Below, one piece after another: positions 19,605-23,121 of a stretch of 64,000 nucleotides of DNA (positions are counted from its first letter, which is position 1; each line of letters opens with the position of its first letter). This DNA comes from Candidatus Eiseniibacteriota bacterium. Lineage in GTDB: Bacteria > Eisenbacteria > RBG-16-71-46 > CAZAMP01. A program made the position numbers and the translations under genes. The notes beneath the pieces are model-generated. The model made no database searches. It was not told where the DNA came from and was given only the letters and a program-made list of their open reading frames with translations. The DNA lies in the NCBI GenBank assembly GCA_965224245.1, contig OZ245046.1, positions 5,216,001 to 5,280,000 of the forward strand, given 5' to 3'.

Positions 19605-20627
19605 CTAGGCGTCGCGCTCGCGCCCGAGCCGGGCCACCAGGGTCGTGGCCAGCACCCCCGCCAGCACGAGGCCGACGGCGCCGGCGGCCTCGAACGTGCC
19701 GGGGCGGAAGAACGCGGTGGGATAGTCCTCTCGATCGAACTCGTGGAGGGTCTCGGCCGTGACCACGCGGCCCTTGATGATCGTCTCCCCGAGCGTGGGC
19801 TCGAGCGTCTCCTGAAACGGCCAGAGGCCCACCACTGCACCCACGAGGAGGCCCAGCAGCACGCCGAGTGTGGGCCCGGCGTGACGGGCGAGAAGCCACT
19901 TCAAGAGATTGCTGATCCCCACCACGCCGACGACGACCCCGAGCCCGACCGGCAGCACGACCCGGAGCCCCACGTCCAGGATCGCACCGGCATCGCGGGC
20001 CTCCAGCGCGAGCTTGAACGCGTCGACTCCCGAGAGGATCGGGATGTACATGCCCATCACGAGGAGCAGGTATCCGCCCGAGACGCCGGGCAGGATCATC
20101 GCGCTCGCACCGGCCACGCCGGCGAGTGCGAACATGATCCAGCCGGCCTCGGCCCCGCCGGCCGCCGCGGCGCCACGCTGCTGGGCCAGCGCGAGGAGGG
20201 CCATCCCGACGAACCCGACGGCCGCACCCGCCCACACGCGGCCGTCGACCGGGGCCGCGAGTCGCCAGACGACCGGAACGCCGCCCAGCGTCAGGCCGAT
20301 GAAGAGGCTGTACATGACCCAGCGGTGGTCGACGACCAGGTCCTTGATGATGCCCGCGCCGAGCAGCACCGCGACCATCGCGGCCAGCACGACCGAACCG
20401 AGGACGACGAGCGATGGCCGGTTGAGCCGGAGCGTCGTGACGTCGGCCACCGCCTGGATGAAGCGCGGATACACGCCGGCGGCCAGGAGCATCGTGCCCC
20501 CGCTGATCCCGGGCACCAGGTTCGCGAGTCCCATCAGGACGCCGCCGACCGACCCGCGAGCGGCGAGGGCCGGCAGCGCGATCGACGCCGCGTCGCGGTC
20601 GGGCGTGGCGGGTCGGGGAACGGACAC
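19605..20627 (-). CDS. DUF368 membrane protein (undecaprenyl-phosphate translocase family)
   Basis: MGLANLVPGISGGT and SAMILPGVSGG repeats, followed by WPF. Confidence 0.9.
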   Translation of the reverse strand: MSVPRPATPDRDAASIALPALAARGSVGGVLMGLANLVPGISGGTMLLAAGVYPRFIQAVADVTTLRLNRPSLVVLGSVVLAAMVAVLLGAGIIKDLVVDHRWVMYSLFIGLTLGGVPVVWRLAAPVDGRVWAGAAVGFVGMALLALAQQRGAAAAGGAEAGWIMFALAGVAGASAMILPGVSGGYLLLVMGMYIPILSGVDAFKLALEARDAGAILDVGLRVVLPVGLGVVVGVVGISNLLKWLLARHAGPTLGVLLGLLVGAVVGLWPFQETLEPTLGETIIKGRVVTAETLHEFDREDYPTAFFRPGTFEAAGAVGLVLAGVLATTLVARLGRERDA

Positions 20628-20717
20628 GGTCAGCCTCCGGTCGGGTTGGTGACGTCGGGACGGGTCTCGGGTGTGCGCGTGACGATCGAGATGGTCGATC
20701 GACCCTGCTCGTTTACC

Positions 20718-21065
20718 TCACATGAGGCGCAGGCCGCAATCGGGACACTCCTCGGTGCCCGACGGAGATCGATGCTGGCACGCGGGACACGTGATCTCCG
20801 GTGCGTCGTGATCGATGAACGCGGCCGCCGCGGCGCGCTCCTCCTCGGAGGCCTGCTCGAGCCAGTCCGACTCGATGAGCGACATGGCCGACTGTGCGTC
20901 GTGGCTCGCGACCGCGAGCCAGACCTTGGTGCCTCAGGAGTTCGCGGCCGACGGCGGGGCGACCAGCTCCGCGTCGACGCCGGCGCCCCGGAGGCGGGCT
21001 CGGATCGGCTTCAGATCGGGCAGGCGCCCTTCCAGCAACACGACGATTTCCGGCTCTTCGGTCAC
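20718..21065 (-). CDS. Candidate selenoprotein, 115 aa, Sec at codon 44, C-terminal zinc ribbon
   Basis: GAGGA RBS with GTG at 21065. Translation: MTEEPEIVVLLEGRLPDLKPIRARLRGAGVDAELVAPPSAANS-U-GTKVWLAVASHDAQSAMSLIESDWLEQASEEERAAAAAFIDHDAPEITCPACQHRSPSGTEECPDCGLRLM. TGA at 20936-20934 is followed by a SECIS-like hairpin. Confidence 0.82.
20898..20924 (-). promoter_or_regulatory. Bacterial SECIS-like hairpin
   Basis: Minus strand reads UGA-GGCACCAAG-GUC-UGGCUCGC-[GGUC]-GCGAGCCA-C-GAC: a perfect 8-bp upper stem, a bulged C and a 3-bp lower stem. The loop starts 21 nt after the UGA. Confidence 0.78.
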
Positions 21066-21192
21066 GATGAGATCCTCATGAAACGCGGCGGCAAAAAGCG
21101 ACCCCACCTTCTCGAGGTGGGGTCGCGGGCCCCGATTGGTGCCTCCGGGACACTACCCCGGCCGGTCGACCGGCCCGGCCGGCAGCGGTCGA

Positions 21193-23121
21193 CTACCTCA
21201 GAATTGTAACCCGGATCGGCCGGTCCGTGACGGGATTCCCTCGGGCGTCCATCGGTCTCGCGAAGTACGTCCCCTGCGGCACGCGCCCGCCGATCTCGTT
21301 GCGCCCGTCCCACGTCCACGCCGCGCCGCCGACCGGGGGATCCAGCAGCGTTCGGACGAGGCGGCCCCGCACGTCGAAGACGTCGACGCGCGCGGCATCA
21401 GCGGGAGTCGTGATCGCGACCGTCGCACGAGACGGGTTCGGCCGCGCGCTCGCGACGACGTCCGCGACGCGGGCCACTGTCTCGTGCAGCGAGGATCGGC
21501 CGGAGCCCCCGCCGGTCAGGTCGTACTCGAACTGCCAGACGAGCCCGCCGGCCTCGGGCGCGGCCGCGTCCTCGGTCCACTGGAGCGCGTCGACGTACAT
21601 CGACAGCGCGGGTTCGATGTACACGAGGCTCGGGATCGAGTCGTAGAACAGGTTGGTCAGTCCCGTGAAGCCCCAGATCATGTCGGTTCGGTTGGCCACG
21701 GGATCGGAGATGTTTGACGGGAACATCCGGCCGACCTCGAACGGGATCATCTGATCGGCCAGCCACTGCGCGGCACGCAGGAAGCCGAGGCCGTGATTGA
21801 CGTCGCCGGTCACGTCGTACGCGTCGCCGAGGAAGTTCATCGGTCCGATGTGCCCGACGCACCAGTTCGTCCAGTCGAAGTGCGCGGTCCAGTCTAGCGT
21901 CCCGGCCGGCGTGTCGGTGTTCCCCTCGTGCAGCACGTAGTTGGCGGCGCCCTCGACGAACTCGAGGTAGCGGGCGTCGCCCCACGCCTCGTAGGCCGAG
22001 AGGAACGCGCGTCCGATCCCGGCGGCGCCGTTGCCGGTGATCACCGAGTAGGTCTCGGTGCCCGGCGCGACGTCCTCGCGACCCGGCCAGCGATACGCCG
22101 GCTGATACGGCGATTCGGGGACCTCCTCGGACATGTTGATCAGGTACTTCAGGGCGCTCCGGGCCAGCATCTCGTACTCCGGGTCGTCCCAGGTGATCGC
22201 CATCTCGATCAGGAACTCGGCGATGCCCGAGACGCCGGCGCAGAACGACGTGCCGTAATAGCCGCTCAGCATCGGGGAGAACACGCCCCACTTGAGGCCC
22301 CCGTTCCCGTCGTCCTCGGCGAGCTCGAGATAGCTCTGGGCCACGCAGCGTACGACGTTCTCGGCCTCCGCGCTGCCGGTGGCCCGGAACACCTCGACCG
22401 CGCCGCGGCCCACCGCGGCCACCCCGTAGGAGCCGATGTTGTAGAAGTGCGGGTGCTGGAACAGCTCGAAGAACACGCACCCCTCGGCGTCCGCGTACTC
22501 GGGGAACCACGTGGCGAAGTAGCTGAGCGGCACCTTCACCGCGTCGAGCCACACCATCGCGTCGTCGGCCATGTCCCGGTAGGCATCGGCCTGGGCGGTG
22601 GAGCCGCCGGCGGCCAGGACGCGGAGATAGCCCTCGGCGAACGCCATCGCGTTCCACGCGGTGGACGCCTTGGCGATCTGCTCGTAGTAGGGCGTGGCGT
22701 TCTCCCAGCCCGGCCACGCGTGCCCACCCTCGGGCTGGGGCTGCGCACGCGTCGCCATCCAGTCCAGTGCCCCGGTCCAGTACGTGTCGCTTCCGACGTA
22801 GTTCGCATCCATGAAGAGCTGGGCCACCGCGCCCATGCTGACGATCCCGTGCGCGCGCCACTGGGTGTAGTCGGTCTCGTCGTCGGGCAGGCTGCTCGGG
22901 CTCGCGACCACGTCGACGCCCGTGATCGCCGTGTGCCCGGTCGATTCCTGATACGCGCGAATGGCGGTCTCGATCTCCTTGGGGATCGGGGCGTGAGGCA
23001 CGTTGGCGCAGTCGGTCGCGGGCGATGGTCCGATGCCACACGCGATCGCGACACCGGTGGTGATCACGACCAGCCCGGCGGGTGTCAGCGTGGACCACAG
23101 CGCAAAATGGGTTCGACGCAT
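21193..23121 (-). CDS. Secreted LanC-like (alpha/alpha toroid) protein with C-terminal FlgD-Ig-like domain
   Basis: Hydrophobic N-terminus, repeated GxxG helix motifs (FCAGVSGI, GNGAAGIG, WCVGHIG, IWGFTG), C-terminal RPNP..DVRGRLV..WDGRNE..GTYF. Confidence 0.75.
   Translation of the reverse strand: MRRTHFALWSTLTPAGLVVITTGVAIACGIGPSPATDCANVPHAPIPKEIETAIRAYQESTGHTAITGVDVVASPSSLPDDETDYTQWRAHGIVSMGAVAQLFMDANYVGSDTYWTGALDWMATRAQPQPEGGHAWPGWENATPYYEQIAKASTAWNAMAFAEGYLRVLAAGGSTAQADAYRDMADDAMVWLDAVKVPLSYFATWFPEYADAEGCVFFELFQHPHFYNIGSYGVAAVGRGAVEVFRATGSAEAENVVRCVAQSYLELAEDDGNGGLKWGVFSPMLSGYYGTSFCAGVSGIAEFLIEMAITWDDPEYEMLARSALKYLINMSEEVPESPYQPAYRWPGREDVAPGTETYSVITGNGAAGIGRAFLSAYEAWGDARYLEFVEGAANYVLHEGNTDTPAGTLDWTAHFDWTNWCVGHIGPMNFLGDAYDVTGDVNHGLGFLRAAQWLADQMIPFEVGRMFPSNISDPVANRTDMIWGFTGLTNLFYDSIPSLVYIEPALSMYVDALQWTEDAAAPEAGGLVWQFEYDLTGGGSGRSSLHETVARVADVVASARPNPSRATVAITTPADAARVDVFDVRGRLVRTLLDPPVGGAAWTWDGRNEIGGRVPQGTYFARPMDARGNPVTDRPIRVTILR

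Follow-up and report, generated by a model that had tools for sequence, protein, structure and literature searches.

Does the TGA at codon 44 of a short reading frame from Candidatus Eiseniibacteriota end translation, or is it read as selenocysteine (Sec)? The frame lies on the minus strand of a 64,000-nucleotide stretch of contig OZ245046.1 (assembly GCA_965224245.1, positions 5,216,001 to 5,280,000), and this whole stretch is called the window here. The initial annotation had described a frame of 116 codons at this locus, with a GAGGA ribosome-binding site and a GTG start, broken only by a TGA in the context PSAANS-U-GTKVW and ending in CPAC...CPDCG. It had proposed a selenoprotein that gene callers would miss or truncate. 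By direct reading and translation the frame was found to consist of 115 codons and a terminal TGA, with the described start region and C-terminal end, and codon 44 is its single in-frame TGA. The truncation was observed as well, as the only record for this gene in the public protein collection, from its own genome, is an open reading frame (ORF) of 55 amino acids (20721-20885). The proposal as a whole was upheld by a complete Sec machinery, a conserved TGA, homologues with Cys at the same position and a covarying hairpin. The comparison of sequences makes it very probable that the window gene is a functional selenoprotein gene that has been mis-annotated.

The conservation of the TGA was examined by searching 206 genomes of the phylum in all six frames. 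Nine of them, including that of the window, contained a match over the full length (42-53% identity to the window protein). Each of these matches contained exactly one TGA, all in one alignment column, which backs the complete reading frame. Eleven further matches were weak and partial (E 6e-4 to 8e-3). Among 50 loci on genome contigs, TGA was found at the Sec column in 21 and Cys in 15, while the other 14 had neither or matched in the C-terminal ribbon only. Among the metagenome loci (49 found, 26 of them examined), 14 carried TGA, including eight new distinct sequences, 5 carried Cys and 7 neither. Altogether the TGA occupied the same column in all 30 distinct TGA-carrying homologues, which came from Eisenbacteria, Myxococcota and Nitrospirota, and the interrupting codon was never TAA or TAG. 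The record titles of the related loci name Eisenbacteria, Myxococcota/Myxococcales, Nitrospirota, 'Deltaproteobacteria', Bradymonadales and one Nitrosopumilus bin. The contig from this archaeal bin (L058) bears a bacterial-type Sec form with the same hairpin and is probably mis-binned.

In the window, the 16 codons from the TGA to the next in-frame start, GTKVWLAVASHDAQSA, are conserved yet contain no in-frame ATG, GTG or TTG, and can therefore be made by read-through only. The proportions of synonymous and non-synonymous changes between close pairs were similar on either side, with ratios such as 8:10 and 12:12 upstream of the TGA and 16:16 and 9:16 downstream. Coding sequence conserved on both sides of an in-frame UGA, one of the tests for a selenoprotein, is thus present.

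Homologues with Cys at the Sec column were found in large numbers. A profile search of the protein database gave 539 proteins at E <= 1e-3, and the best 150 of these were realigned with four earlier homologues to give 186 domain rows. The Sec column was covered by 104 rows, 70 of which had Cys. The other residues were Ala (6), Gly (4), Trp, Arg, Met and Val (3 each), Pro, Ser and Leu (2 each) and Thr, Tyr and Asp (1 each), and 3 rows had a gap. Hence residue 44 aligns with TGA or Cys as the initial annotation had anticipated, Cys being the commonest residue in the database rows, and the deltaproteobacterial homologues with Cys-rich loops that it had mentioned do exist, together with Myxococcota and long-form sequences of this kind. 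Sec and Cys forms were interleaved on a quick, poorly resolved tree. Alternation of Sec and Cys at one column is the usual signature of a residue that is used chemically.

Of the rows that do not reach the Sec column, 35 start at profile positions 46-52, directly after it, and 47 start later. Many database entries are proteins of 67-72 amino acids that begin right after the TGA. The start positions of the 35 rows form the pattern expected of truncated calls of Sec forms. One truncated homologue of 69 amino acids (P0003) is named 'rubrerythrin' by one source, a name that seems to rest on its CxxC...CxxC ribbon alone. Three proteins (P0014, P0045 and P0068) have Trp at the Sec column, e.g. GGW-GTQFWLAVAS, and lie among the non-Cys forms on the quick tree; they could have a true TGG, or a TGA translated under genetic code 4 by the gene caller. 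Six sequences of Anaeromyxobacter type (L064, L066, L067, L070, L074 and L079) possess both ribbons and a loop with neither Cys nor Sec (RPRWNLYVP), and this branch has lost the reactive residue.

SelB-dependent recoding of UGA, directed by a selenocysteine insertion sequence (SECIS), is established bacterial biology. The presence of selA, selB, selC and selD, on which the proposal depended, was established in the genome of the window (6.94 Mb, 27 contigs, 97% complete), where all four scored above their cut-offs: selA with 515.8 bits (cut-off 267.9), selB with 324 bits (242.25), selD with 378.4 bits (125) and tRNA-Sec with 71.9 bits (47). ARAGORN also called a tRNA-SeC with the anticodon TCA. 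The selD gene itself holds an in-frame TGA (SGAGU-ASK; C1:4218184-4219107), i.e., it is a selenoprotein gene. Its SECIS (L001:1528-1574) has a 12-nucleotide spacer, an 8-bp (base-pair) stem and a GGU loop at +21, which is nearly the geometry of the candidate. In the phylum, selB was above the cut-off in 177 of the 206 genomes, a tally that includes one unpublished genome (G072), and all nine genomes with the window gene were among the 177.

A hairpin with a GGUC loop had been proposed just 3' of the UGA, and it was found there, its first base being the 10th nucleotide after the UGA. A lower stem of 3 bp with a bulged C supports an 8-bp stem (20921-20914 with 20909-20902), which follows the UGA after a 12-nucleotide spacer and places the GGUC loop (20913-20910) at +21 to +24. 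Six core pairs were intact in 180 of 180 cells across the 30 distinct Sec forms. At pair 30-39, 24 forms have C-G, and the other 6 have U-A through two synonymous changes (CTC to CTT for Leu and GCG to GCA for Ala). Pair 27-42 is mostly G-C (27 forms), with G-U in 2 forms and A-U in 1, where G-C was replaced by A-U through synonymous third positions. At pair 29-40, 23 forms have U-A and 7 have U-G. Covariation was scored at 0.178, compared to 0.132 ± 0.014 for shuffles; none of 500 shuffles reached this value, and it was above that of every slid version. The outer pairs were less well kept, and the full 11-pair structure was paired in 77.6% of cells.

The loop and the spacer were similarly constant. 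Of the 22 forms in alignment A2, 20 had a GGUC loop, 1 had GGUU and 1 had AGUU. All eight metagenome forms added later had GGUC, and GU was invariant in all 30 forms. The spacer was constant in the A2 forms apart from one in-frame codon insertion. The stem is encoded in the codons for a conserved LAVAS peptide, in which CTG, GCC and GTG are not used (0/22, 0/44 and 0/22), while in three neighboring genes they account for 48% of the Leu, 47% of the Ala and 41% of the Val codons. No comparable hairpin was found in 14 of 15 Cys forms. The Sec forms thus share a conserved hairpin shortly after the UGA, with G/U in its apical loop, which is another test for a selenoprotein. An Rfam scan of 20000-22000 at E <= 10 returned no SECIS or other credible family.

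To which proteins is the product related? An AlphaFold2 model was built from a 50-sequence alignment with Cys substituted for Sec, and reached a predicted local distance difference test score (pLDDT) of 91.4 and a predicted template modelling score (pTM) of 0.70. The modelled elements are β 7-14, α 15-27, β 32-35, a short helix at 38-41, the loop with residue 44, β 47-53, α 54-71 and α 74-81, followed by the zinc ribbon. By hhalign, the family matched 27 PF11823 (Se_S_carrier, DUF3343) domains at 92.8% (E 4.1e-7, 54 columns), and the nine phylum sequences matched PF11823 at 82% (E 1.1e-5, 52 columns). The family matched DUF2007 (PF09413) at 94.5% (E 7.9e-8, 61 columns), and PF11823 and DUF2007 matched each other at 85.8% (E 5.3e-6, 59 columns; alignments A5 and A8). 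Among 50 family members, three had weak direct matches to PF11823 and two to DUF2007. These profile comparisons suggest that PF11823, PF09413 and the N-terminal domain of the window protein belong to one superfamily of small βαββα domains. P37, U44 and G45 align on the invariant Pro, Cys and Gly of PF11823 (P31, C38 and G39). The DUF2007-like N-terminal domain of the initial annotation is upheld by hhalign, and PF11823 fits the Sec loop better because it shares the Cys-Gly motif. Among the matches listed from 81 matching genomes of 121, no PF11823 Cys was encoded as TGA.

Foldseek gave no match in the PDB at E <= 0.001, and a search of the PDB by sequence found nothing significant for the family profile (best E 0.034) and nothing for PF11823. 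The top VIA-align matches were ring-building domains of EscJ/PrgK (Z 8.2-8.8), with the zinc-ribbon part barely tested; homology to EscJ/PrgK was rejected, and these Z values were read as a common small βαββα arrangement. A solved DUF2007 example, 2hfv, was the fifth best match (Z 6.7, root-mean-square deviation 5.1 Å, 69 residues), which weakly favors the DUF2007 likeness, and this Z value is within the range of common small α/β arrangements.

The window protein also matched the NCBIfam entry NF049953, 'zinc ribbon-containing (seleno)protein DG', with 74 bits (E 1.3e-20; profile positions 54-171 of 172), and a six-frame search with NF049953 gave 70.2 bits for the window gene. All nine phylum homologues behaved like the window protein. 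True members scored 171-224 bits, and the long forms of 172-176 amino acids, which have an extra N-terminal CPxC...CxxC ribbon, 187-224 bits. This N-terminal ribbon (profile positions 1-53, about 53 residues) is absent from the window protein, whose match starts at position 54, and the in-frame sequence upstream of the gene contains no CxxC before a terminator is reached. The C-terminal CPxC...CPxCG ribbon of NF049953 is present, with C93, P94, C96, C107, P108 and C110 invariant. One true member, L104 (181.6 bits), has a TGA in the same loop (MRGGU-GGPQLFLQV), and hhalign aligned the Sec positions of both L104 and the window protein on the PF11823 Cys. We therefore regard the window gene, from its sequence, as a short-form relative of DG and, under the curated criteria, not as a member.

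The family is not new, since it was predicted to be a selenoprotein in 2025. According to the accessible text of the deep-Sep paper (Xiao & Zhang 2025, PMC12013277), a 'hypothetical protein DG' with no conserved domain was found in two Desulfosediminicola species, and a 2026 review, in its accessible part, lists DG as NF049953 with the motif GUxG (PMC13188914). In a full-text literature search NF049953 was named nowhere beyond this review, and 'selenoprotein DG' nowhere. What is new is a short-form subfamily below the curated cut-off in Eisenbacteria, Myxococcota and Nitrospirota, the supplementary homologue list of deep-Sep lying outside this comparison, together with clean covariation evidence for the SECIS of the short form. 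A link of the Sec loop to DUF3343/DUF2007 was not found in the literature searched, which did not cover the deep-Sep supplements and Haft & Tolstoy 2025.

How might the protein be made and what might it do? By analogy with established SelB biology, SelB with Sec-tRNA(Sec) would bind the apical hairpin through the GGUC loop 21-24 nucleotides past UGA-44. The ribosome would insert Sec there rather than stopping, and would produce a cytoplasmic protein of 115 residues. In this protein the small βαββα domain would present Sec in the loop before strand 3, followed by the helices and the Cys4 ribbon, and homology would place the selenol where PF11823 has its invariant Cys, on an exposed loop. PF11823 was predicted by comparative genomics to be a family for selenium/sulfur (Se/S) trafficking or carriage (Lin et al. 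2015, PMC5322559, accessible text). We tentatively suggest that the selenol could be an exposed nucleophile that carries or relays S or Se, or that takes part in thiol/selenol redox exchange, a proposal less likely to be right than wrong. Cys is found 3-5 residues upstream of Sec in 13 of the 22 Sec forms, at -7 or -8 in 3 and at none of these places in 6. A selenenylsulfide redox couple is thus plausible for many members, and it would not be a universal mechanism because six Sec forms, including the window copy, have no nearby Cys. A more specific and more doubtful proposal is that the short DG-like proteins are Sec-bearing DUF3343/DUF2007 members that serve as selenol-based Se/S relays, with the ribbon docking onto a partner.

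Several observations weigh against the gene being a selenoprotein of this kind. Taken alone, the hairpin is within chance for GC-rich sequence. Only 1 of the 1,257 TGA triplets of the window (both strands), the one at codon 44, is followed by such a hairpin (at least 8 perfect bp, GU in the loop, 8-16 nucleotides after the TGA), and about 0.4 such cases are expected by chance per window (5 hairpins in 128,000 strand positions). The folding energy over 47 nucleotides was -19.9 kcal/mol (z = -1.83), with 8 of 200 shuffles as good, and over 66 nucleotides z was -0.29. Since the hairpin by itself is not beyond chance, the case rests on the comparative evidence. The hairpin also overlaps the conserved LAVAS peptide, which accounts at the protein level for part of its conservation. 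One Cys form, L060, keeps a hairpin near its TGT codon. This hairpin has 6 bp (GCUGGC-UGUG-GCCAGC) with different, mutually compensating codons; L060 may have changed from Sec to Cys recently, or its hairpin may serve a second purpose. Neither Cys nor Sec stands at the Sec column in 34 of the 104 rows that reach it (another residue in 31 and a gap in 3), and the residue would thus not be essential in every family member. The window copy itself lacks the nearby Cys for a CxxU-type redox couple.

The family assignment meets similar difficulties. The window protein had no direct Pfam match to PF11823 or DUF2007 and only sub-threshold zinc-ribbon matches: the PF11823 gathering score (25 bits) was missed, with no match at E <= 1 for the window protein or at E <= 0.01 in its own genome, and the window protein had no match to PF09413 (gathering score 25.7 bits). 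With the long forms only, the hhalign match to PF11823 fell to 57% (E 1e-4, 50 columns). The score against NF049953 is below the cut-off of 130 bits, and MAFFT set the Sec of L104 one column before the window U, where the long Cys forms have CC. The carrier role of PF11823 is itself a comparative-genomics prediction only, as given in the accessible text of PMC5322559. Finally, no conserved gene neighbors that would indicate a pathway were observed. No ORF cluster was common to more than three of 24 loci, except the antisense ORFs of the gene itself, and hence there is no operon clue to function.

Could the UGA be a true stop? The locus would then encode a 43-residue peptide and/or a separate zinc-ribbon protein of 55 amino acids, and the hairpin would act as an attenuator, serve RNA stability or simply follow from the LAVAS codons. 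The single 55-residue ORF in the public collection, the many database proteins of 67-72 amino acids and the unexceptional hairpin energy agree with this. However, a stop leaves no start codon for the 16 conserved codons that follow it, and both halves align as a single domain to full-length Cys homologues, with strand 3 lying after the TGA. The interrupting codon was TGA in 30 of 30 forms; the balance of synonymous and non-synonymous changes is about equal on either side, and the Sec machinery is complete. A true stop is thus very improbable. Still more improbable, to the point of being negligible, is a pseudogene, or a TGA that arose by faulty sequencing or assembly where the gene normally has Cys (TGC or TGT) or TGG. 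TGA is one base from TGC, TGT and TGG, and Cys forms and three Trp forms are in the database; on the other hand, TGA occurs in the same column in homologues of at least three phylum labels, according to record titles, and the hairpin is conserved with covariation. An error in the TGA had been considered in the initial annotation, and three runs of a single sample, which may be the source itself, gave independent Logan contigs that reproduced the stretch with 0 differences; this weakly excludes an assembly slip.

A different alternative accepts recoding of UGA-44 and assigns it to regulation, where Se availability sets the ratio of truncated to full-length protein, or a near-cognate tRNA reads through, and Sec is not catalytic. 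The non-Cys, non-Sec residues (31 of 104 rows) and gaps (3) at the column, and the missing partner Cys in the window copy, are what such a role would allow. It is harder to reconcile with the alternation of Sec and Cys at one column, interleaved on the tree, with the alignment of Sec on the invariant Cys-Gly of PF11823, and with the Cys 3-5 residues upstream in 13 of 22 Sec forms, and we consider it improbable. A functional selenoprotein gene is therefore retained as the reading of this locus.

The features of the locus are given in the table. The flanking LanC-like and DUF368 genes of the initial annotation are both present, the latter as a gene of PF04018, the former DUF368. The strong terminator of the upstream gene overlaps an alternative GTG at 21107, and the GTG at 21065 was taken as the start because this terminator sits there. 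No terminator was detected on the minus strand between the stop of the window gene and the PF04018 gene 90 nucleotides downstream (20628-20717). The two genes may be co-transcribed, and their pairing is not conserved in other genomes. No RNA run was among the sequencing runs listed for the stretch.

Table. Coordinates of the selenoprotein candidate, its elements and its neighbors in the window.
Feature	Position	Strand	Description and basis
Complete coding sequence	20718..21065	minus	115 codons + terminal TGA (20720-20718); GTG start at 21065; Sec codon 44 (translated with TGA = U)
Ribosome-binding site GAGGA	21076-21072	minus	7 nucleotides 5' of the GTG start; direct sequence reading
In-frame UGA, residue 44 read as Sec	20936-20934	minus	Context PSAANS-U-GTKVW
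Putative SECIS hairpin	20924-20898	minus	GUC-UGGCUCGC-[GGUC]-GCGAGCCA-C-GAC; fold, covariation, LAVAS codon bias
Predicted N-terminal βαββα domain, residues 7-71	20853..21047	minus	Sec in the β2-β3 loop; AlphaFold2, hhalign
C-terminal Cys4 zinc ribbon	20736..20789	minus	C93, C96, C107, C110 (CPAC...CPDC); invariant in alignments A1 and A3
55-amino-acid ORF with ATG start	20718..20885	minus	Sole piece in the public protein collection; exact look-up, ORF list
Intrinsic terminator of the upstream LanC-like gene	21126-21098	minus	12-bp stem, then T run; terminator scan
LanC-like/FlgD_ig protein gene	21196-23121	minus	Upstream neighbor
PF04018 protein gene	19608-20627	minus	Downstream neighbor

These results bear on annotation, on function and on the distribution of selenoproteins. 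Since the NF049953 cut-off excludes the short form, such genes stay mis-called, and at least 35 related database rows start just past the Sec column, like truncated calls. The alignment of Sec with a Cys that is invariant in a predicted Se/S carrier family provides the first concrete testable idea of DG function. If the Se/S relay proposal were true, the orphan family DG would gain a testable role in Se/S trafficking, and the short forms would be the first selenoprotein branch of the DUF3343/DUF2007 carrier superfamily. The gene adds a selenoprotein to Eisenbacteria, and a full-text literature search found no paper that pairs Eisenbacteria with selenocysteine. A SECIS within LAVAS codons, with compensatory synonymous changes, is also a useful natural example of RNA structure constraining a coding sequence.

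Among known systems, the hairpin resembles the SECIS of E. coli fdhF. The GGUC loop that the initial annotation had attributed to fdhF was indeed located 19-22 nucleotides after its UGA, and both elements are hairpins that lie within the coding region shortly after the UGA and have GGUC as their apical loop (+19 to +22 in fdhF, +21 to +24 here). In contrast, the stem sequence of the window element is different, and its bulge is on the 3' side of the lower stem. PF11823 proteins have the same order of β-α-β-loop-β-α, whereas they are stand-alone proteins of about 70-100 amino acids with no zinc ribbon, as described in the accessible text of PMC5322559. DUF2007 is similar in fold, as its example 2hfv indicates, and unlike the window protein it has no conserved Cys in the β2-β3 loop. 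In family DG, Sec or Cys occupies the corresponding Gly-rich loop ahead of the third β strand, and there is a SECIS hairpin with a G/U-containing loop about 21-26 nucleotides after the UGA. The motif of the window protein is S-U-G-T, compared to the published GUxG, and its short form occurs in Eisenbacteria, Myxococcota and Nitrospirota, whereas the family was named from Desulfobulbia species.

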